Assembly (NCBI GenBank): GCA_963422645.2
Contig: CAXXVO010000004.1
Span: forward strand, 128,001-192,000
DNA length: 64,000 nt
Direction: 5' to 3'
Source: Alphaproteobacteria bacterium
Lineage (GTDB): Bacteria > Pseudomonadota > Alphaproteobacteria > UBA828
Both the position numbers and the translations under genes were made by a program. Below are positions 2,597-42,056 of this stretch, piece by piece. The notes beneath the pieces are model-generated. The model worked only from the letters and a program-made list of their open reading frames with translations, had not been told where the DNA came from and ran no database searches. The first letter of the stretch is position 1, and each line of letters starts with the position of its first letter.

Positions 2597-3644
2597 AGCA
2601 TATCCGTTTTAGACGGAACCATATCCGACGTTTCGGATGTAGTTCTTGCATTCTGCGGGCTCGATGGTGGCGATGAGGTGGCCGAGGTGGCGCCAGGTGT
2701 CCTCGAAGTCGCGCCTCTGCGCGTTGCGCATCCAGTGTTTGATCTTGGCGAAGGCCTGCTCGATGGGGTTGAGGTCGGGTGAGTAGGGCGGCAGGAACCA
2801 GAGGCGGGCTCCGGTGCTGCGGATCGCCTGTCTGACCGCCTTGGCCTTGTGGCTGGCGAGATTGTCGAGGATGACGATGTCGCCGGGCTTGAGGGTGGGG
2901 ACGAGCTGCTGCTCGACCCAGGCCAGGAAGCAGCGGGTGTTGATGGGGCCGTCGAAGACGCAAGGGGCGCTGATCCTGTCTGCGCGCAGGGCGGCGAGGA
3001 AGGTCATGGTGCGCCAGTGGCCATGAGGCGCGTAGCCTTTGAGGCGCTGGCCCTTCTTCGCCCAGCCCCTGAGCGGTGCCATGTTGGTCTTGATCCAGGT
3101 CTCGTCCACGAAGATCAGGCGGTCCGGGTCGAGGTGGCGCTTGAGCGCCTGCCAGCGCGTCCGCTTGCGGGCGACTGCGGACCGCGCCTGCTCAGTCGCG
3201 AACAGAGTTTTTTTTGAAGCTCAGACCCTCGCGCCTGAGGAAGCGCCAGATCGTGTCCCGGCTCACCGCGATCCCCGCAGCGGCCAGCAGGTCCCGAAGA
3301 CGGTCGATCGACAGATGCGGCGTCTCAGCGACCAGTCTGTGAACCAGCTCCCGATGCGGTTCCAGGAGCCAGGGGCGGTAACCGCCGATCCTGCCCGGCG
3401 CCACACTCCCCGTCGACCGGTAGCGCGCAACCCACTTCGGCACCGAGGAGACGCTGACACCGAAGCGCGCCGCCACCTGGCGGATCGGCTCGCCCGCCAA
3501 ATGGGCCCGCACCACGCGCTCACGAAGATCACTCGAATAGGGCTGTGTCATCCATGCTGGCCTCCTTCACCAGTAGCCAGCTTGAATCACATTTCCTAAC
3601 TAATGGGAATTCCTAATGATTCTCTCAATCACGGATATGCTCTA
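2594..3644 (-). mobile_element. IS630 family element
   Basis: Terminal IR TAGAGCATATCCGT / ACGGATATGCTCTA, both ends in a CTAG context (TA target); two-ORF transposase. Confidence 0.93.
2609..3551 (-). CDS. IS630 transposase (orfA 3192-3551 plus orfB joined by frameshift)
   Basis: HTH orf[11 protein letters not shown]; orf[23 protein letters not shown]; A8 slippery run at 3208-3215 (FKK). Confidence 0.9.
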
Positions 3645-3860
3645 GTTCTCGGCGAAGCGTGTCGACCCGGTCGATCAGCTCCTTGTATGTGCCGCGCGGC
3701 CGGTTGGTCGTCGAAGTCACCAGCTCGCCGAGCTGGTTCTCGATGGCCTTCGGCAGCGCGCGCCCCCGGCGGCCTCCCAGAACAGTGCCGACCTCCGATT
3801 CCAGAGCGCTGTGAAGGCTTGAGCGGGCGCTATCCGGAAGGGCGAGCGCGCTTGAAGTCG
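3645..3860 (-). pseudogene. Internal fragment of a probable YhaN/Rad50-like AAA ATPase, cut at the IS630 end
   Basis: SLHSALESEVGTVLGGRRGRALPKAIENQLGELVT..RPRGTYKELI resembles this family; frame runs into the IS end. Confidence 0.45.
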
Positions 3861-4060
3861 CCCTTAGCAACCGCGCACATTCTGCCACTGCACGGGGCTT
3901 CCCCGTTGAATGACGCGCGATCGAGCCCCGAGAATGGACCCGGCCATTTCGTCGCCGCGAGGCGATGGCCCGGCGCCTCAGTGGAACGTCATCTCAGCGA
4001 GCAGCGCGAGCGCCAACCTATTTTCGACGGAATCTCGGTTCTTCATCCGTGTAAGGGAGT

Positions 4061-6200: not shown

Positions 6201-6824
6201 ACGACCAGCACCAGCCGCGCATTTCTGCTGGACTACCCGGTATCGAGCGCTGGCGGTGTTGACGGATCCCGTGCGCGGGTCCCTCGCGTCCGAGCCGAAT
6301 GCGGAGGCGAGCGCCGACAACGGCATTCCGCCCGCACCTGTGGTGGCGGCGGAACTGGGCGATTTCGGGCCGGCCGTCGCGGCGCCCAAGGGTGGGACGC
6401 CAAGCTCCAGAGCCAGATTCGTGCTGCGTGAGTCACCGCAAACACCAAAATGCACATCCTCCACGGCGGGTACCCAGACCCCGCCGAAGAACCTTTTCAA
6501 ATGGTGGGGAGTCCCCCCCGTTCGAACAAACCAGAAATGTGCTATCTCCATGACTACGACGTGCAAACTTGGCCTTGCAATATACCTATCAACTCACCAT
6601 ATACTTAGTTATGGATAATTGGTTCCGATGATATTGAAAATGCATTTTCATGTCTTTGGGTAACTGCCCAGGTACCCCCTCTCTCTTATGGAACAAGCCA
6701 GTTCCTTTTGCGTCAACGCCCCCACGCCGCGGGGGTGCCTACTCTCTTGAGCGCGAGAGGATGATGAACGCCGCGTCGCGAACAAGATGAGAGGACAGCG
6801 ATACTCAGGATGAGCCGGAGAAGT

Positions 6825-8366
6825 TCAGGAGCGCAGTATAGGGATCAGCTGCATCGGTTCCGGGTGCGCCAGGATTTGCAGGATGTTCCAGCCTTGCTTT
6901 CGAGCGGTGACGATGACGCTGCGCATTCCGGCGAAGTTGCAGGCGCCTTGCAGGGAGCGGAAGCCGCCTGAGATCTTCTCATGCACTTTGTTCATACGGA
7001 TGTCACGCTCCGCCTCGTTATTCGTGAACGGCGTGCGCAGGTCGGTGAGGAAGCGCAGGCAGCCCTCCTTATGCTTTTGAAGGCGGCGCGCGAGGTTGTG
7101 GCCGATGCGGCGTTTCTTTCGCCCTCGCTTTGCGATCTGGAGCGGCGGTTGGGCCTCATGGAAGGCGATGGCTTCTTCGAGGATACGGTCCCATGCCCTT
7201 GAGATGCGGGCCACCAGGGAGGCGGGGACTTGACGGTCTTTCTCACGGGCGAAGCGGGCGGCCCTGCGCGCGCGCTGAAGCAGGCGGTGCATGCTCGCCG
7301 CCCATTCCTCCTTCTCGATGTCGATCAGGGCCTGGAGTTCGCGCAGGTGATGTGCGTTGCAGGCGCCGTGGCGGACGCCCTTGATGGTGAAGTAGGGGGC
7401 GAAGTCGTCGTGGACGAGGATGCCTTTCAGGTTCTTTTCGACACCGCGCGCGCTCACCTCGCCGATGCGCAGGACGGTGAGCAACGGGGTGCACAGCACA
7501 TGGAGCCAGCGGGTACGGGCGGCGATACGCAGGCCGGTCTCGTCGAGGTGCTTGACCGGCGCCTGCGTGCGGATCAGATCGGCGACATGGTCGAGGAAGC
7601 CCTCGAAGCGCTGCGCTGTGCGCCGGCCCATGGCGGCGATCGTGGCAGTGGAGATGGACACCGCGAAGATGTCGCTCATGAGTTCGGCCAGACGCTTCTC
7701 GGGCACGAACTGGGCGTACAGCAGGTAACTCACCCAAGCGGTGATGCGAGGGCCGTACTGGACCGGGGCGGTGACGCCCGGCGGGAAGGCGGCTCGTGTC
7801 AGCGTGCCGCATGCGCCGCAGAGGCAGCGATGGGCGCGGTGTTCGGTGACCTCGAGAGGCTGCGGCTCGGGTACGTCGAAGACCTGCCGACAGGCGGGCG
7901 CGCCTTGCCGGTCGGCGTCCGAGAGCTCGACGCCACAGCCGGAACAGGTGGAGGGGTGGTGATCGACGACACGGTCCGGGCTGTCGCTCCGCGCGAGGGT
8001 GGTTCCCTTGTGGCCGGGCTGGCCGCCACTGGGCCCGCCGGACTTTCCGCGCTGGCTTTGGGTGCGCCTCTGGGCTCCGCTTTTCTTCTTGAGCCCGTCG
8101 CTGGCGGGGGGCTTGCTGCTTGTGGTGCTGTTGAGGGCCGCGCTGCGCTCGAGTTCGGCGATGCGCTCGCGCAGGGCCGCGTTCTCCTGCTCGAGTGCGG
8201 CATTTTCCCGGGCGAGCGCGGTGGCTGATCGCAGCAGCCCCTGCCCCCATTCCCGGACGGCAACGACGACAGTGGTTGCGAGGGATGATGGCTCGAGAAG
8301 CTCCTTCAGGCAGCAGAAGGCCTCGTTACGGGCGGCGAGGTCTTCGTGCCAGTGCGACACCGTCAC
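6825..8366 (-). CDS. IS66 family transposase (single-ORF, ISBst12-like), element A
   Basis: Leucine zipper, SSKPPASD, GGQPGHKG, CxxC zinc finger, HLDETG, HDDF, CNAHHLREL, TNNEAERDIR; GTG overlaps the MTase TGA. Confidence 0.92.
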   Translation of the reverse strand: MTVSHWHEDLAARNEAFCCLKELLEPSSLATTVVVAVREWGQGLLRSATALARENAALEQENAALRERIAELERSAALNSTTSSKPPASDGLKKKSGAQRRTQSQRGKSGGPSGGQPGHKGTTLARSDSPDRVVDHHPSTCSGCGVELSDADRQGAPACRQVFDVPEPQPLEVTEHRAHRCLCGACGTLTRAAFPPGVTAPVQYGPRITAWVSYLLYAQFVPEKRLAELMSDIFAVSISTATIAAMGRRTAQRFEGFLDHVADLIRTQAPVKHLDETGLRIAARTRWLHVLCTPLLTVLRIGEVSARGVEKNLKGILVHDDFAPYFTIKGVRHGACNAHHLRELQALIDIEKEEWAASMHRLLQRARRAARFAREKDRQVPASLVARISRAWDRILEEAIAFHEAQPPLQIAKRGRKKRRIGHNLARRLQKHKEGCLRFLTDLRTPFTNNEAERDIRMNKVHEKISGGFRSLQGACNFAGMRSVIVTARKQGWNILQILAHPEPMQLIPILRS

Positions 8367-9028
8367 GTGTCTTCGGCCTCGACGGCCATCATGGCGGCGA
8401 GCACGGCGAGGCGTTCGCCCGGCGGCAAGGCCTGGTAGCGCCGGCCCCAGTTGGCTGCCTTGCGCTTGATGCGCTGGCGGTCGGTGAAGTTCCGGCCTGC
8501 GTGGCTGGCCCAATGCATCCGGTCGGGGGCGTAGTTGAACCAGACGACCTCGGTTCGCACCAGACCCTGGGTCGTGACCTGCAGCGCCAGCCGGCGCCAT
8601 CCCGCCAGCACCTCGTCATAGAGCGCCGACGGATGGCCCGAGATCATGACCTGGCAGGGCAGAGCCTTGAGCAGCGCGAGAAGCGCGACGTGGCCGGCCT
8701 CCTCGTACTCGAAGCGGTAGCGCTGCGCCGAGCGGCGGGTCGCGTGCAGATAGGGCGGATCGCTGTAAACCAGCTCCGGGCCCAGGAACGGGAACGAGGC
8801 CAGGAAGTCATGGGCACAGCCGTGAACCAGATCGACCGGGTAGTCGCAGACGAAGGCCTCGAGCGCCTGCGCATCGCGGTCGATGCCGATCGAACGCACG
8901 GCCGGCGGCTTGCGCTTCGTCAGCGCCCCGCCCCCAAGGTGGCTCTCGATGTAGACGGAGTGCGGCGGCATCAGCGCAATCAGCGCTTGGCACAGACCTG
9001 CTGTCGCCTTCGAGCCGAAATACCCCAT
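8363..9028 (-). CDS. DNA adenine methyltransferase (D12/Dam-like, 221 aa)
   Basis: YFGSK, YIESHLGGGAL (SAM-binding motif I variant), IGIDRD, YSDPPY (motif IV), MISG, RTEVVWFNY. Confidence 0.88.
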   Translation of the reverse strand: MGYFGSKATAGLCQALIALMPPHSVYIESHLGGGALTKRKPPAVRSIGIDRDAQALEAFVCDYPVDLVHGCAHDFLASFPFLGPELVYSDPPYLHATRRSAQRYRFEYEEAGHVALLALLKALPCQVMISGHPSALYDEVLAGWRRLALQVTTQGLVRTEVVWFNYAPDRMHWASHAGRNFTDRQRIKRKAANWGRRYQALPPGERLAVLAAMMAVEAEDT

Positions 9029-9188
9029 GGACCGCTCCCGTCACGCGAGAGAGCAGTCCATAGTCCCGCAACTCTATGAGGTCAAGAACCAATCGCGGTG
9101 GCAGAACCAGGCCGCGGCCGCCGCCATAATCACCGTCCTCAACTCAGGATTGGGGTACCTGGGTAGTTACGTCTTTGGTGAGATTTTC

Positions 9189-11067
9189 GTAACTGCCCAG
9201 GTCGTCTGATTTGTCATTTTGGGCCAGTGGATTGAGGCGTTTCTCGTTCGGAGTTGGTGGAAAGGGCTTGACGGGAATTTCGGGAAATGACTCAACAACG
9301 ACATGAGCAATCCCGAGTCGCCGCGCGGCCCTTCGACGGGAGCAGCGCCCGAAACGCCCGCGCAGAAGATCGCCCGCCTGGAGGAGGAGAACGCCCGGCT
9401 TCGGGAGGAAAATGCCTGGCTTCGGCAGCAGAACGCGCGGCTGGAAGAGCAAGTCGCGCGTCTCGTCGAGCGCATCGAGGAGTTGGAGCGCCGTCTCGGC
9501 CTCAACAGCGGCAAGCCGCCTTCGAGCGATGGGCTGAGGAAGCCGAATTCGAAGCGGCGAACCCGAAGCCTGCGCGGCAAATCGGGCCGCAAGCCCGGTG
9601 GCCAGCCCGGCCACAAGGGCAAGACGCTGCGCCGCGCCGATCACCCGGATCGGGTGAAGGATCACGTCCCGGCTTCCTGCAAGGGATGCGGTTCGCCGCT
9701 TTCGGACGCGGCCAGGGCGGGAACGCCCGTCGCCCGCCAGGTGTTCGATCTGCCCGAGCCGAGCCCCCTGGAGGTGACCGAGCACCGGGCGCATGCCAAG
9801 TGCTGCGGGCATTGCGGGACGGTGACCCGGGCGGCGTTCCCCGACGGGGTGTCGGCGCCGGTGCAGTACGGCCCGCGCATTGCCGGGGTGGCGGTCTACC
9901 TTCAGCACGCTCACTTCCTGCCGGAGGATCGGCTGTCGCAGGTGATGGCCGAGCTCTTCGGCGCGCCGGTGACGGCTGCGACGTTGGCGACGATGAGCGA
10001 GAGGGCGGCCGAGCGGCTGCGGGACGCGGCCTTGCACATACAGGACCTGGCGGCGGGCACGGCGCGGGTGAAACACATGGACGAGACCGGCTTGCGGATC
10101 GGCGGTCAGACGCAGTGGCTTCATGTGATCTGCACGCCGCTGCTGGCGGCGTACCGGGTCAGCGGCAAGCGCGGCGCCCTGCTCTCGGGTGTCTCCGGCA
10201 TCGTCGTGCACGATCACTGGAAGCCGTACTTCGCGATGGAAGGGGTGGAGCACGGCCTGTGCAACGCCCATCACCTGCGGGAGTTGCAGGCGCTGGTGGA
10301 CATCGAAGGGGAGGCTTGGGCCCGGCGGATGCAGCAGCTCCTGCGCCGAGCCAATCGCGCCGCCCGCATCGCGCTGGACAAGGATATCGCCGTTCCGGCG
10401 AGGCTTGTGGCGCTGATCGAGCGCCGATACGACGAGATCATCGCCGATGCGCTGGCCTTTCACGAGAGCCAACCACCGTTCTCGCCTGGCAAGAGGAAGA
10501 AGCGCCGGAAGCGAAGGATCGGTCACAATCTGGCCTTGAGGCTGCGCGACCACAAATGCGCGGTGCTCCGGTTCCTGATCGACCTCGAGGTCGGGTTCAC
10601 GAACAACGAGGCCGAGCGCGACCTTCGGATGATGAAGCTGCGCCAGAAGATCTCCGGGGGCTTCCGGTCCGCGCAGGGGGCCGAGAACTTCGCCATCCTG
10701 CGCAGCGTCATCACCACCGCCAGAAAGCAGGGCTGGAATATCATCGAAGCCCTGACCAGCCCATCGGATCGGCTCATCGCCACCGTCAAGTGCGCGTAAG
10801 CTCACCTGGCACGGGTTCTCCAACAGCGGAGCCATTCTCATAAACGATCATGGTCGACGCCGTGCTGGACCACCCCATAGAATGAAAATCGGTGCCCGTC
10901 GCGCGGGCGGACTTCGGGCCACATCGGGGTAGCTTACCGGTCGCAGTCCGCAAGAGGGGCATCGTGAGCTGTGAAACCCGGCGACCCCAGAGGAGCACAC
11001 GGGCGTCGCGTGGGTAGCGTTGTGCCGAATCCCAGAGAATTTTCACAGCAAGAACCTGGGCAGTTAC
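9189..11067 (+). mobile_element. IS66-type element B (1879 bp), intact
   Basis: IR GTAACTGCCCAGGT at both ends; TSD AGATTTTC at 9181-9188 and 11068-11075. Confidence 0.95.
9303..10799 (+). CDS. IS66 family transposase, element B
   Basis: KPPSSD, GGQPGHKG, HMDETG, HDHW, CNAHHLREL, TNNEAERDLR. Confidence 0.95.
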   Translation: MSNPESPRGPSTGAAPETPAQKIARLEEENARLREENAWLRQQNARLEEQVARLVERIEELERRLGLNSGKPPSSDGLRKPNSKRRTRSLRGKSGRKPGGQPGHKGKTLRRADHPDRVKDHVPASCKGCGSPLSDAARAGTPVARQVFDLPEPSPLEVTEHRAHAKCCGHCGTVTRAAFPDGVSAPVQYGPRIAGVAVYLQHAHFLPEDRLSQVMAELFGAPVTAATLATMSERAAERLRDAALHIQDLAAGTARVKHMDETGLRIGGQTQWLHVICTPLLAAYRVSGKRGALLSGVSGIVVHDHWKPYFAMEGVEHGLCNAHHLRELQALVDIEGEAWARRMQQLLRRANRAARIALDKDIAVPARLVALIERRYDEIIADALAFHESQPPFSPGKRKKRRKRRIGHNLALRLRDHKCAVLRFLIDLEVGFTNNEAERDLRMMKLRQKISGGFRSAQGAENFAILRSVITTARKQGWNIIEALTSPSDRLIATVKCA

Positions 11068-36857: not shown

Positions 36858-37037
36858 GTCGTTGTTGAGTCATTTCCCGAAATTCCCGTCAAGCCCTTTC
36901 CACCAACTCCGAACGAGAAACGCCTCAATCCACTGGCCCAAAATGACAAATCGTAACTACCCAGGTACCCCAATCCTGAGTTGAGGACGGTGATTATGGC
37001 GGCGGCCGCGGCCTGGTTCTGCCACCGCGATTGGTTC

Positions 37038-37066
37038 TTGACCTCATAGAGTTGCGGGACTATGGA
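37038..37066 (+). promoter_or_regulatory. Candidate sigma-70 promoter of the MTase-transposase operon (also 9057-9085, minus strand)
   Basis: TTGACC-N17-TATGGA, followed by GGGAG RBS and ATG 37095. Confidence 0.45.
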
Positions 37067-37094
37067 CTGCTCTCTCGCGTGACGGGAGCGGTCC

Positions 37095-37760
37095 ATGGGG
37101 TATTTCGGCTCGAAGGCGACAGCAGGTCTGTGCCAAGCGCTGATTGCGCTGATGCCGCCGCACTCCGTCTACATCGAAAGCCACCTTGGGGGCGGGGCGC
37201 TGACGAAGCGCAAGCCGCCGGCCGTGCGTTCGATCGGCATCGACCGCGATGCGCAGGCGCTCGAGGCCTTCGTCTGCGACTACCCGGTCGATCTGGTTCA
37301 CGGCTGTGCCCATGACTTCCTGGCCTCGTTCCCGTTCCTGGGCCCGGAGCTGGTTTACAGCGATCCGCCCTATCTGCACGCGACCCGCCGCTCGGCGCAG
37401 CGCTACCGCTTCGAGTACGAGGAGGCCGGCCACGTCGCGCTTCTCGCGCTGCTCAAGGCTCTGCCCTGCCAGGTCATGATCTCGGGCCATCCGTCGGCGC
37501 TCTATGACGAGGTGCTGGCGGGATGGCGCCGGCTGGCGCTGCAGGTCACGACCCAGGGTCTGGTGCGAACCGAGGTCGTCTGGTTCAACTACGCCCCCGA
37601 CCGGATGCATTGGGCCAGCCACGCAGGCCGGAACTTCACCGACCGCCAGCGCATCAAGCGCAAGGCAGCCAACTGGGGCCGGCGCTACCAGGCCTTGCCG
37701 CCGGGCGAACGCCTCGCCGTGCTCGCCGCCATGATGGCCGTCGAGGCCGAAGACACGTGA
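37095..37760 (+). CDS. DNA adenine methyltransferase, copy 2
   Basis: Protein identical to 8363-9028 (one synonymous GAG/GAA difference seen). Confidence 0.88.
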   Translation: MGYFGSKATAGLCQALIALMPPHSVYIESHLGGGALTKRKPPAVRSIGIDRDAQALEAFVCDYPVDLVHGCAHDFLASFPFLGPELVYSDPPYLHATRRSAQRYRFEYEEAGHVALLALLKALPCQVMISGHPSALYDEVLAGWRRLALQVTTQGLVRTEVVWFNYAPDRMHWASHAGRNFTDRQRIKRKAANWGRRYQALPPGERLAVLAAMMAVEAEDT

Positions 37761-39024
37761 CGGTGTCGCACTGGCACGAAGACCTCGCCGCCCGTAACGA
37801 GGCCTTCTGCTGCCTGAAGGAGCTTCTCGAGCCATCATCCCTCGCAACCACTGTCGTCGTTGCCGTCCGGGAATGGGGGCAGGGGCTGCTGCGATCAGCC
37901 ACCGCGCTCGCCCGGGAAAATGCCGCACTCGAGCAGGAGAACGCGGCCCTGCGCGAGCGCATCGCCGAACTCGAGCGCAGCGCGGCCCTCAACAGCACCA
38001 CAAGCAGCAAGCCCCCCGCCAGCGACGGGCTCAAGAAGAAAAGCGGAGCCCAGAGGCGCACCCAAAGCCAGCGCGGAAAGTCCGGCGGGCCCAGTGGCGG
38101 CCAGCCCGGCCACAAGGGAACCACCCTCGCGCGGAGCGACAGCCCGGACCGTGTCGTCGATCACCACCCCTCCACCTGTTCCGGCTGTGGCGTCGAGCTC
38201 TCGGACGCCGACCGGCAAGGCGCGCCCGCCTGTCGGCAGGTCTTCGACGTACCCGAGCCGCAGCCTCTCGAGGTCACCGAACACCGCGCCCATCGCTGCC
38301 TCTGCGGCGCATGCGGCACGCTGACACGAGCCGCCTTCCCGCCGGGCGTCACCGCCCCGGTCCAGTACGGCCCTCGCATCACCGCTTGGGTGAGTTACCT
38401 GCTGTACGCCCAGTTCGTGCCCGAGAAGCGTCTGGCCGAACTCATGAGCGACATCTTCGCGGTGTCCATCTCCACTGCCACGATCGCCGCCATGGGCCGG
38501 CGCACAGCGCAGCGCTTCGAGGGCTTCCTCGACCATGTCGCCGATCTGATCCGCACGCAGGCGCCGGTCAAGCACCTCGACGAGACCGGCCTGCGTATCG
38601 CCGCCCGTACCCGCTGGCTCCATGTGCTGTGCACCCCGTTGCTCACCGTCCTGCGCATCGGCGAGGGACGCGGCGATGTCGAAAAGAACCTGAAAGGCAT
38701 CCTCGTCCACGACGACTTCGCCCCCTACTTCACCATCAAGGGCGTCCGCCACGGCGCCTGCAACGCACATCACCTGCGCGAACTCCAGGCCCTGATCGAC
38801 ATCGAGAAGGAGGAATGGGCGGCGAGCATGCACCGCCTGCTTCAGCGCGCGCGCAGGGCCGCCCGCTTCGCCCGTGAGAAAGACCGTCAAGTCCCCGCCT
38901 CCCTGGTGGCCCGCATCTCAAGGGCATGGGACCGTATCCTCGAAGAAGCCATCGCCTTCCATGAGGCCCAACCGCCGCTCCAGATCGCAAAGCGAGGGCG
39001 AAAGAAACGCCGCATCGGCCACAA

Positions 39025-41543
39025 CCTCAGACTTCCTGACCTCTGCTGATTTTAGGTGACACGAGCCGCGCGGATTCCGAGGCCCCGTCGATGTCGTAGA
39101 CTATGCGCAGACGGGTGCCGGGGAAGACCGTTTCGGTGGCGTTCAGGTCGCTCAGAACCGCATCGATCCAACGGTCGCAGGCGTCGTTTGCGAGGCCAAG
39201 AATGTGGACCCGCAGGAGGCCATTGCCAGGATCCGGCAGGATGTCGGCATCGGCGGTGAGCAGCGCTTGAAGCAGTTTCCGGGGATGGGGCTTGTGGCCC
39301 TGCGCCTGCATGACGGGAAGCATCATGCGGGTTTCGGCGCGGTAGGCGATCATCCGGATGACGTCGAGGAGGAGGCGCTCGCGCGCGGGCAAGGCATCGA
39401 GCTGCTCGGCTTCGTCGAGGTCGCCGGCCCGGCAGTGCTTGGGCGTCTCCCTGCGGCTGGCCCTGACGATGTCGCGGACATCCTGGAGGTCCCTGACTTC
39501 CCTCCTGAGTTCCGCCGTCGGCTGCTTCTTCCGGGCCGTGTCGGCGATGCGGTTGCGCAGGCGGCCAAGCTGGCGGTCGAGGCGATGGATTGCCTTGTCA
39601 TAGGCCCGCCGCAGCGGGTTGACGACCATGGCGGCGGGATCGAGAGGCTCGAGCTCGTGGGTCGGCAGGGCGTCGAGATTGAACTCGTCACGCATGTACT
39701 TGAAGAAGTTCTCCTGCGACCAGCGCGAGAACATGGCGCCCGCAACCTCAGCCATCGGCTTGTGCGGATCGGTGGTGATCAGCGGCACCTGACGGCCGTT
39801 GTCGAGCAGGCGGCGGATCTGGCGCACCCTGAAGCCGTTCGGCAACGTCACCGGCTTCTCAGCCAGCCGCATGGTGGCGCTGCCGTCCGCCGCCGGTCCG
39901 TGAATGGGAACGGTCATCGCGCCGAAGTCCTCGGCCGGCCAGTCCTCGCCCCTGAAGTTCTTGTGCCAGGTCAGGCAGGCGACGCCGCGCCTCGCCAGCC
40001 GGCGGAACAGATCCGGGCTCCAGCCCTCGCGGTCGAAGACCAGGGTGAGCGCCGGCTGGCCGGGATGCTCGGCGGTCAGGTCCGGCGCCCCGGCGCCAAC
40101 GATCCCAAGCTCCTGCAGCGCCGGCACCACGTCGGCTTCGATGGCCGCGACCATCTTCGGGTCCAGCGGCTTGTGCAGACAGAGCAGCGGCTTGCCGCCC
40201 AGAGCGTTGATCCAGTAGCTGGCGCTCGCCGGCAGGCACAGCTTCTCGCGCGAGACGAAGTGCTTGGGCAAGCGCCCCTTGCGGCCGGAGTAGACCTTGA
40301 CGTGCCCGTCGATGGCCAGCGTCGCCCAGAGCTCCGGCTCGTCGGCGCCTGCCAGCGCCTGGCAAGGGCGAGCTGCCACGCCCGCACGCCGGCCTCGTCG
40401 TCGGCGATGAGAGCGATCTTGCGGCGCAGCGTCTTGACCTCGGGGCAGCGATCGAGGCCGAGAATGGCGCCCCATTCGCCCGGCGCCTGGTAGCGCAGGC
40501 TCTCGGGGTTGCGCACCCGCGCCAAGGTCATGAAGGCCAGGAAGAGCAGGATCGTAGGCAAGCCGTAATAGCCCTTCGGCAGCAATGGCAGGAGACCGGT
40601 CTCGGAGAGAAGACCTTCCTTCAGCAGGGCCGGCAGGGCGGCGAGCACGCCGCCGAAGCGGACACCGCGGGCGGCGGCGGCGAACTGCGGTTCGACCGGC
40701 CCCGCCTGTCCACAACTGGCCAGAACCCGAGCCGGAACATCGCAAGTCGCACGCCCCATCGGCGCCTGCCGGTCCCGCCGATCGCGCGCGCTGCGATCCG
40801 TTTGCGGCTGCGCTTCCAGCCCCGGCGCCGTCTCCGGCCCCGGGGCACCGGTACTCTCTTCATCGACACGGCCTTCAGGAGCCGCACCCGCGTCAGGCGG
40901 CGCAGCCAGCGCTGAGCGTCCGGGCTCCCCATCCGCCTCCGTGTTGCCGATCAGTCCCTGACGGCGCCACTTGTTGACCGATGGCGCTGACACGCCGAGA
41001 ACCCGGGCCGCCGCAGAGCCGCTCAGGCCCGATGCCAGCAACGCCGTCGCCTTCTCCGCCAACTCCGGAGTGAACACCGACGGCCCGCGACCGCGCCGGG
41101 GCTTCATGAACCCCGCTTCGCCCTCGGCCAGGTAGCGCCGTCGTGCGCGCTGCACCGTCGCGCGCGAGACAGCGAAAGCGTCAGCCAGTTCCTGCGGCGA
41201 GACCGCGCTGATCGCCGCGAGGCGGCCGATCCGCAAGAGCATGGCCGTGCGGTCATCGGCGGCGTGGCTGTCAAAGGGAATGAGGTTGGAAAAGTAGGTG
41301 AAGGTGTCGTCCGAGATCAGGACGGCGAAGCAGCTGTTGCCGATCGAGACCGCCTCTGGAGGGCACATTGGGAGGGTACTGGGCATGGTTGAGACCGTGC
41401 AATTGGTATCAAATTATAATATCAGACCTCGGGCGCGACACCCAGCGAAAAACCGCCTGAAACAACCGAAATGTATCAGAATTCAAGGAGTTCCCGGCAC
41501 GCTGCCCAGAACAGCCAGCATCACGAGGTCAGGAAGTCTGAGG
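39025..41543 (-). mobile_element. Unclassified about 2.5-kb DDE insertion element
   Basis: IR (CCT)CAGACTTCCTGACCTC / GAGGTCAGGAAGTCTG(AGG); exact ends ambiguous by 3 bp. Confidence 0.85.
39027..41386 (-). pseudogene. Large putative DDE transposase with N-terminal HTHs, frameshift near 40350
   Basis: Two HTHs, LGLDRCPEVKTLRRK, IDGH, FDREG, RWSQENFFK. Confidence 0.8.
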
Positions 41544-42056
41544 ATATCGCCGTTCCGGCGAGGCTTGTGGCGCTGATCGAGCGCCGATACGACGAGATCA
41601 TCGCCGATGCGCTGGCCTTTCACGAATAACGAGGCGGAGCGTGACATCCGTATGAACAAAGTGCATGAGAAGATCTCAGGCGGCTTCCGCTCCCCGCAAG
41701 GCGCCTGCAACTTCGCCGGAATGCGCAGCGTCATCGTCACCGCTCGAAAGCAAGGCTGGAACATCCTGCAAATCCTGGCGCACCCGGAACCGATGCAGCT
41801 GATCCCTATACTGCGCTCCTGAACTTCTCCGGCTCATCCTGAGTATCGCTGTCCTCTCATCTTGTTCGCGACGCGGCGTTCATCATCCTCTCGCGCTCAA
41901 GAGAGTAGGCACCCCCGCGGCGTGGGGGCGTTGACGCAAAAGGAACTGGCTTGTTCCATAAGAGAGAGGGGGTACCTGGGCAGTTACGACAAATCAGACG
42001 ACCTGGGCAGTTACGAAACGATAAAGCGGCCTTCGGGGGCCGGGGAGTGACGACCC

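Follow-up and report, generated by a model that had tools for sequence, protein, structure and literature searches.

Why does an insertion sequence (IS) carry, directly ahead of its transposase gene, a gene for a protein resembling DNA adenine methyltransferases? This question is raised by a 64,000-nucleotide stretch of an alphaproteobacterial genome (hereafter the window; positions 128,001 to 192,000 of contig CAXXVO010000004.1, assembly GCA_963422645.2), in which an IS66-family element, designated element A, contains a gene for a Dam-like protein of 221 amino acids (aa). As described below, comparison of related loci indicates that this gene is a cassette with its own putative promoter, common to elements of the IS66, IS701 and IS1634 families. 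The reading that we favour, with a confidence only a little better than even, is that the cassette would act as a portable, autoregulated control module for the transposase, so that negative feedback would be carried from host to host. This reading derives from the conserved promoter sequences and from analogy with the plasmid protein Upf31.

An intact IS66-family element with an additional gene

Element A is an intact IS66-family insertion sequence of 2511 bp (window 6660-9170), with both of its genes on the minus strand. Its features, and the position of a second copy in the window (copy B), are as follows.

6652-6659: left copy of the target-site duplication, 8 bp, GTCTTTGG, with the same letters as 9171-9178.
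6660-6678: terminal inverted repeat at the transposase end, GTAACTGCCCAGGTACCCC, 19 nucleotides (nt), pairing with 9152-9170.
6825-8366, minus strand: IS66-family transposase, 513 aa, start codon GTG at 8366, domains DUF6444, zf-IS66 and DDE_Tnp_IS66.
8360-9085, minus strand: portable cassette, from the -35 box to 3 nt beyond the stop codon, with 82% nucleotide similarity to the IS701-type element of locus L064.
8363-9028, minus strand: Upf31-family Dam-fold protein, 221 aa, with intact S-adenosylmethionine (SAM)-binding motifs and DPPY, no alpha-class recognition domain and a basic two-helix C-terminus.
9032-9054, minus strand: inverted repeat in the 5' leader, including a Shine-Dalgarno-like GGGAG; a possible RNA hairpin.
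9057-9085, minus strand: putative cassette promoter TTGACC-N17-TATGGA, enclosing the candidate operator CATAG-N10-CTATG (9059-9078).
9152-9170: terminal inverted repeat at the cassette end, 19 nt, pairing with 6660-6678.
9171-9178: right copy of the target-site duplication, 8 bp, GTCTTTGG.
36953-41987, plus strand: copy B, inverted relative to element A, with its Dam-like open reading frame (ORF) intact at 37095-37757.

The inverted repeats are complementary at 18 of 19 positions (95%) and, together with the DDE domain and the 8-bp target duplication, place element A in the IS66 family. A reading of this DNA made earlier from its letters alone (the sequence-only reading) had described an IS66-type element with inverted repeats and a target-site duplication at this position, and all of these were present. 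The transposase matched NF033517 with an E value of 3e-85 (286.5 bits, against a cutoff of 180) and PF03050 with an E value of 1.9e-40. No tnpA or tnpB gene of the canonical IS66 group was found within the ends of element A, where the Dam-like gene is the only other ORF with family support. The element is therefore assigned to the single-transposase IS66 subgroup and not to the canonical three-gene group.

The TGA of the Dam-like gene (8365-8363) overlaps a GTG in the transposase frame (8366-8364), forming the 4-nt GTGA at 8363-8366. This overlap had been pointed out in the sequence-only reading; it is present, though confined to this IS66 lineage. If translated from an in-frame ATG at 8600, the transposase would be 591 aa long, but homologues at other loci align from residue 1 of the GTG start. 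To judge from this arrangement, the Dam-like gene is probably co-expressed with the transposase.

GANTC sites are absent from element A, in comparison with 1.83 per kb genome-wide and a mean of 7.6 in base-composition shuffles. Three such sites occur in the region of a sister family in the same genome. The zero in element A is only mildly unusual.

Copies in the genome

The assembly from which the window derives (5.9 Mb in 23 contigs) was found to hold 36 full-length copies of the element, all more than 98% identical. Identical 8-bp flanking duplications, which differ from copy to copy, were observed for 22 of the 36. The 221-aa Dam-like ORF is intact in all 36 and a transposase of 512 or 513 aa is kept in 34. 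The sister family is about 82% identical in DNA sequence, and its Dam-like protein is 86% identical to that of element A.

Copy B has a duplication, GACAAATC (36945-36952 and 41988-41995), that differs from the GTCTTTGG of element A, and its Dam-like protein is 100% identical to the 221-aa protein of element A. Its transposase gene is broken by a 2580-bp insert at 39029-41607. Thus, the proposal that the unit had moved at least twice with an unchanged protein was sound as far as it went, but, given 36 full-length copies, it was a large understatement. Likewise, the DPPY gene placed by the sequence-only reading inside the element ends and upstream of the transposase is indeed there, and the 36 intact copies identify it as an integral gene and not a one-off passenger. 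The element is an active insertion sequence, and the small Dam-like gene is an integral part of it.

Several further observations concern the insertion sites. Matching duplications are missing at 14 of the 36 full-length copies. Two copies have flanks that are reciprocally exchanged (GACTCTCC/ATGTATTC and ATGTATTC/GACTCTCC), a pattern that inversion through recombination of the two would be expected to leave, and the flank GAAACGCC is shared by three copies. Most of the insert in copy B is a different multi-copy element of about 2514 bp, and contig C15 carries many near-identical copies of it.

A cassette-free, single-transposase IS66 element, with the end GTAACTGCCCAGGTCGTCTG, lies at 9188-10900, 9 bp from element A. 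Its 498-aa transposase (9303-10799) is 59% identical to that of element A. The duplication of copy B is the reverse complement of GATTTGTC, a sequence found 19 nt inside the end of the element type to which this neighbour belongs. Taken together, the 9-bp spacing and the match of the copy B duplication suggest that the cassette-bearing IS lands in or beside the ends of its cassette-free relative.

The Dam-like gene as a cassette common to several IS families

It was of interest to examine the best matches to the Dam-like protein of element A (at least 66% identity), which comprised 80 genome loci and 80 metagenome loci. When element A was compared with the IS701-type element at L064, nucleotide similarity was found only between element positions 86 (the -35 box) and 811 (3 nt past the stop codon). 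These limits define a cassette of about 730 bp, made up of promoter, candidate operator, leader and ORF.

Among the 80 genome loci, 70 have an IS66-family match, eight are of IS701 type and two are solo cassettes. The IS66 match lies directly downstream in all of the 70 except L070, where the match is upstream and a 147-aa IS66 fragment occupies the downstream position (on the same contig as L122). Three of the IS701 loci (L060, L064 and L077) were identified by domain scan (PF13546; for L064 and L077 also NF049999, at E values of 1e-91 or better), and four (L061, L065, L066 and L078) by near-identity to scanned elements across their length; L063 was counted as IS701 type from ORF position alone.

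A downstream ORF of at least 120 aa could be read in 66 of the 80 metagenome loci; in the remaining 14, the contig ended too early or fewer than about 280 nt lay downstream. The 66 ORFs comprise 61 of IS66 type, two IS701-like (DDE_5), two IS1634 and one unassigned, so that 65 of 66 are transposases. Forty-eight of the 61 have the IS66 DDE domain, two have IS66 N-terminal domains only and 11 are N-terminal pieces, which are 57-95% identical to transposases of a second IS66 lineage described below. The two IS1634 transposases, in L183 and L186, matched NF033559 with E values of 8e-74 and 1e-38. The sequence-only reading had allowed for homologues being mostly unlinked to ISs; within this clade the reverse was found, and the sharing of the cassette with IS701 and IS1634 elements is a feature absent from that reading.

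Three kinds of element were found to enclose the cassette within their inverted repeats: the IS66 lineage of element A, the second IS66 lineage and the IS701-type elements. The second lineage (L072, L080) ends in GTAACTACTCACCC; its transposase is about 30% identical, and its Dam-like protein 68-70% identical, to those of element A. The inverted repeats of the IS701-type elements measure 22 nt in L064 and 19 nt in L077, and no target duplications of these elements were identified from their flanks. At the junction of cassette and transposase, the GTGA overlap occurs only in the IS66 lineage of element A, the other lineages having gaps of 4 to about 130 nt. It is apparent that the Dam-like gene is a cassette with its own predicted promoter, common to IS66, IS701 and IS1634 elements.

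A further partner family may be represented in L123, where a 317-aa ORF (873-1823), cut by the contig end, follows the cassette. It matches nothing in Pfam or NCBIfam, nor does it resemble the IS66, IS701 and IS1634 transposases tested. In L064, about 500 bp (3468-3965) separate the inverted repeat from the cassette promoter and contain, on the opposite strand, a 176-aa ORF without a family match. A partnership with IS630 was considered and rejected: in L056 the cassette is followed by an IS630-type gene, but L056 has no more than 828 bp in common with L059, the cassette alone, and the gene is thus an incidental neighbour.

Phylogeny, spread and selection

The IS-borne proteins group as a single clade (support 100/99) in a maximum-likelihood tree. 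Of 11 rows of unknown context, 10 lie outside it, as do the four plasmid copies; the eleventh, P0144, falls inside the clade, where it has a long branch. Beside the IS66-linked proteins of the element A lineage, those linked to IS701 make up a subclade (98/92). The titles of the genome-locus records name Alphaproteobacteria, Gammaproteobacteria, Tectimicrobiota, Chloroflexota, Binatia, Planctomycetota, Acidobacteria, Bacillota and a candidate-phylum Uhrbacteria genome, so that the cassette is spread over at least nine phylum-level labels.

Nine of 301 sampled genomes of the class to which the window belongs have a match to the Dam-like protein at E values of 1e-10 or lower. Full-length matches near 1e-100 occur in four of the 301 (that of the window included), three of which have more than one, and none was found in the two sampled genomes of the same taxonomic family as the window. 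The wider protein family is large, with 3704 proteins at E values of 0.001 or lower in one library and 5554 cluster representatives in another.

These data bear on the possibility that the gene is a neutral or selfish passenger without a role in transposition, such as a plasmid gene captured once. That its plasmid relatives are stand-alone backbone genes with no adjoining transposase would fit such an origin. Against it stand the fixed position and orientation of the gene directly upstream of the transposase in three IS families, the precise boundaries of the cassette, its intactness in all 36 full-length copies and its retention across so many phylum-level labels. Moreover, the ratio of non-synonymous to synonymous substitution rates (dN/dS) in pairwise comparisons with 13 relatives was 0.12-0.30; the gene is under purifying selection. 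A passenger is accordingly considered improbable.

The Dam-like protein

Motif I of the Dam-like protein (ESHLGGGA) occupies residues 28-35 and DPPY residues 90-93, with GIDRD about 40 residues ahead of DPPY. No Pfam family, PF02086 included, was matched at E values of 0.01 or lower. TIGR00571 (dam) scored 21.1 bits over residues 85-150, against a cutoff of 114.85, which leaves the protein outside the curated Dam/D12 family. Among 43 aligned family members, with identities as low as 39%, G5, H23, G32, D90, P91, P92, H113, S130, G178 and R184 are invariant, and Y93, E28 and G34 are nearly so. This conservation of DPPY and motif I argues for retained catalysis or base flipping.

The AlphaFold2 model (mean predicted local distance difference test score, pLDDT, 91.2; predicted template modelling score, pTM, 0.84) shows a core of Rossmann type, with C-terminal helices formed by residues 181-199 and 203-220, in agreement with the helical tail foreseen by the sequence-only reading. 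The best Foldseek matches of the model were E. coli Dam, DpnM, Mcbe1 and T4 Dam. When the family profile was aligned to DpnM, residues 3-61 of the query matched DpnM 17-73 and residues 79-157 matched DpnM 183-266. About 110 DpnM residues (74-182) are replaced by about 17 in the Dam-like protein, with no counterpart of the recognition domain between motifs III and IV. It follows from this gap that the alpha-class recognition domain is absent, as had been suggested from the letters alone. The protein thus runs from a SAM-binding block through a catalytic block to an extra C-terminal domain. Prediction of a homodimer (two copies, alignment A1) gave scores of 0.15 and 0.28, against a mark of 0.42, and speaks neither for nor against dimerization.

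Relationship to Upf31 of plasmids

A protein search of plasmid records returned 196 records, all below 60% identity; many are from IncP-1beta plasmids and are annotated as upf31.0 or 'DNA methylase'. The Dam-like protein is 45% identical to Upf31 of pJP4 over its full length (222 columns, including the C-terminal two-helix domain and DPPY) and 56% identical to a copy from a Xanthomonas plasmid. The four plasmid neighbourhoods inspected show it as a backbone gene that stands by itself, no transposase being adjacent.

Upf31 of plasmid pBP136, to which identity was measured here by way of the pJP4 copy, was studied by Elg et al. (Mol Biol Evol 2025, PMC11997246; preprint 10.1101/2024.02.05.579024). 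According to that paper, restriction digests, which probed GATC only, gave no indication of GATC methylation, and sequencing by the single-molecule real-time (SMRT) method detected no modification when the upf31 ORF was expressed in ER2796, an E. coli strain free of methylases (PMC11997246). An active promoter, upf31p, lies within the 68 bp upstream of upf31; it is repressed by full-length Upf31 and not by the naturally truncated R751 allele, the C-terminal domain being required, and repression by a hybrid R751/pBP136 Upf31 was shown in a xylE reporter assay (PMC11997246). The paper also predicts that the C-terminal domain dimerizes, proposes inverted CAGCATCG repeats as the operator and suggests KorB as a partner (PMC11997246). 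The words 'transposase' and 'insertion sequence' do not occur in the published text (PMC11997246).

Since the closest tested relative is an autorepressor for which no methylation was detected, enzymatic activity of the IS-borne protein is not to be assumed. The Dam-like protein is more likely a DNA-binding regulator than a general DNA methylase.

A conserved palindrome in the cassette promoter

In element A, the putative promoter has TTGACC at 9085-9080, and CATAG-N10-CTATG (9059-9078) lies between its -35 and -10 hexamers. The candidate TTGACC-N17-TATGGA of the sequence-only reading is therefore present, at 9085-9057 on the minus strand, but it was not called by a consensus promoter scan, the second hexamer being without the final T. 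The -10 hexamers of the second IS66 lineage (TATGCT, TATACT) are better.

The same layout was found upstream of the ATG in every lineage examined: TTGAC, 2 nt, (C/T)ATAG, 10 nt and CTATG, with the second half-site overlapping the -10 hexamer. The strict pattern TTGAC-N2-YATAG-N10-CTAT was present in 23 of 30 unique upstream sequences (representing 81 loci), and a looser form in all 30. Of the metagenome loci, 78 extend far enough upstream, and 70 of these have the operator pattern; near variants, such as GTAG-N10-CTAC, account for several of the eight exceptions. Genome-wide (5.9 Mb), ATAG-N10-CTAT occurs 83 times, and 79 of these occurrences are cassette promoters (59 of the element A type and 20 of the sister type). 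The palindrome sits exactly where a repressor, if bound, would block RNA polymerase.

The upf31 promoter of pJP4 has a comparable arrangement, TTGACAG being followed by CATCG-N10-CGATG. Among eight plasmid relatives, three have CATCG-N10-CGATG upstream, two have CATAG-N10-CTATG and three have neither. The two classes of putative operator point to a family-wide half-site CAT(A/C)G. A conserved palindrome in the promoter of each cassette, together with the same layout in plasmid relatives, suggests high specificity for that site.

The sequence-only reading had taken the protein for a low-specificity or transposase-guided methylase that might mark the element ends, with GTAC as candidate target, or shield the element from restriction. 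GGTACC does occur in both inverted repeats of element A, as had been noted, GTAC is found in most ends of that IS66 lineage, and the protein has no classical recognition domain. GTAC is not conserved in other cassette-bearing lineages, however, being absent from the ends of the second IS66 lineage and from that of L077 (CTGAGCTCGACTTTGTTCA). It is the promoter palindrome that is conserved in all lineages, no end sequence being common to them; the transposases behind the cassette come from three unrelated families, which argues against a specific partnership; and expression of Upf31 was without genome-wide methylation (PMC11997246). We regard an end-marking or shielding methylase as very unlikely.

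Two observations were made on the 5' leader. In the element A lineage its inverted repeat comprises four weak consensus pairs, for which no compensatory change was found. In the second IS66 lineage (L072, L074, L075, L080 and related loci) a 13-pair hairpin, GATCCAA...TTGGATC, lies between the -10 hexamer and the ATG; it shows compensatory changes in four pairs and places a GATC in each arm, just ahead of the start codon.

Proposed mechanism

The favoured control module might operate as follows. The cassette promoter would drive the Dam-like gene and the transposase gene right behind it, as the GTGA overlap and the fixed upstream, same-strand position of the cassette suggest. The protein would bind CATAG-N10-CTATG between the -35 and -10 hexamers, probably as a dimer formed through its two-helix C-terminal domain; such binding is suggested by the conserved site and by the published work on Upf31. 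Bound protein would repress its own promoter and, with it, synthesis of the transposase. All copies in a cell would make the same repressor, which would act in trans, so that expression per copy would drop as copy number rises. The invariant DPPY and the SAM-binding motifs suggest that the site may be recognized by flipping of an adenine, and operator methylation may be included. Control of this kind would accompany the IS into any host, a possible reason for the adoption of the cassette by several IS families. Of the self-encoded epigenetic module proposed by the sequence-only reading, a self-encoded control module thus remains reasonable; a low-specificity or transposase-guided methylase does not fit the conserved operator palindrome or the lack of detected methylation by Upf31.

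Several points weigh against autorepression as the whole explanation. The invariance of D90, P91 and P92 and the near-invariance of Y93, E28 and G34 would not be expected of a pure repressor, and tight repression is not what a genome with about 79 copies suggests. That the transposase gene is co-transcribed is deduced from gene arrangement, and gaps reach about 130 nt in other lineages. The -10 hexamer TATGGA of the element A lineage, missed by the consensus scan, is a poor sigma-70 match. Three of the eight plasmid relatives have neither palindrome. Finally, the near-total linkage to ISs applies to this clade and not to the whole family, the gene standing alone on plasmids.

In a different view, the protein is an active site-specific methyltransferase producing N6-methyladenine (m6A), directed at the adenine of the CATAG half-sites within its operator. 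Promoter activity would then be set by methylation state and transposase expression tied to replication, as by host Dam for IS10 and IS50, through a writer that belongs to the IS itself and is independent of the host. Several observations are in keeping with this. DPPY is invariant, and the glycines and glutamate of motif I nearly so, across a family that includes Upf31, which is hard to explain for a pure binder; the gene is under purifying selection; the predicted fold is closest to those of E. coli Dam, DpnM and T4 Dam; and the half-site CAT(A/C)G shared by both operator classes contains an adenine.

On the other side, the sole experimental test of a family member gave no methylation (PMC11997246), and the alpha-class recognition domain is absent. 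To judge from its primers, however, the SMRT test was of the expressed upf31 ORF alone in E. coli, without a cognate site, and the restriction digests covered GATC only (PMC11997246). By our estimate, a site with 10 fixed bases is expected about four times in 4.6 Mb, too few for motif calling. If the enzyme writes only on its operator, the negative result would follow from its having been tested without that site. We consider a site-specific writer possible, though distinctly the less probable account. The same tentative standing is given to its corollary, namely that m6A placed only on the operator of its own promoter would form a self-contained epigenetic switch, tying transposase expression to replication or to entry into a new cell, and taken up separately by IS66, IS701 and IS1634 elements.

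Significance and comparison with known systems

Insertion sequences are usually described as a transposase and its ends. The elements described here have, in addition, a gene with its own putatively regulated promoter that behaves like an interchangeable control module; at least three transposase families use it, it occurs in many phyla, and a genome may hold dozens of copies. If transposase dosage is indeed set by this module, it would help to explain the bloom and persistence of these elements in symbiont-like genomes. A wider biological context would also be provided for Upf31, a plasmid gene of unclear function. The presence of about 79 identical operator copies in one genome makes the question of methylation by Upf31-type proteins directly testable from long-read data.

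No published description of an IS-borne Dam-like accessory gene was found in a search that did not extend to ISfinder, REBASE or paper supplements, where an entry is possible; none is described in passages of PMC9330008, PMC6563490, PMC4914505 and PMC9296519. Upf31 and single-transposase IS66 elements are known. What appears to be new is the Upf31-type cassette as the standard upstream partner of IS66, IS701 and IS1634 transposases, which was not found in print.

In the ISfinder grouping, the single-transposase IS66 subgroup is the ISBst12 group. Element A resembles it in having DDE_Tnp_IS66 and zf-IS66 domains, ends that start with GTAA, an 8-bp duplication and no tnpA or tnpB, and differs in having an extra upstream gene with its own putatively regulated promoter.

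The IS-borne protein resembles Upf31 over its full length, the C-terminal domain included, and in a Dam fold without the alpha-class recognition domain; both genes also have, within their own promoters, a -35 box and, after it, a 5-nt half-site, a 10-nt spacer and that half-site inverted. They differ in that Upf31 is encoded by a stand-alone plasmid backbone gene, whereas the IS-borne gene heads a predicted IS operon in multiple copies, and in their half-sites (CATCG in the pJP4 upf31 promoter, CATAG in element A). For KorB, the partner proposed for Upf31, an IS offers no counterpart.

In fold, Dam, DpnM and T4 Dam match best, and the motif X/I/II block and the DPPY block can be aligned with theirs. 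Unlike Dam, the tested relative Upf31 showed no GATC activity (PMC11997246). In the IS-borne protein, moreover, the recognition domain of about 110 residues is missing and a C-terminal helical domain has been added.

A regulatory parallel to the mechanism proposed here is offered by proteins of methyltransferase fold that autoregulate and bind an inverted repeat within their promoter. M.SsoII, M.EcoRII and M.MspI are restriction-modification methyltransferases that repress their own promoters through an inverted repeat; they are C5-cytosine enzymes and bind through an added N-terminal helix-turn-helix. None of the three is known as a component of an IS.

Damping of transposition is itself familiar, both from IS-encoded transposition inhibitors and from the control of IS10, IS50 and IS903 by host Dam. 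These systems share with the proposed module a copy-number- or replication-linked damping of transposase expression. Host Dam control of IS transposition is cited in PMC9296519. The cassette would differ from all of them in that the proposed controller is a separate Dam-fold gene, moving as a unit between IS families.

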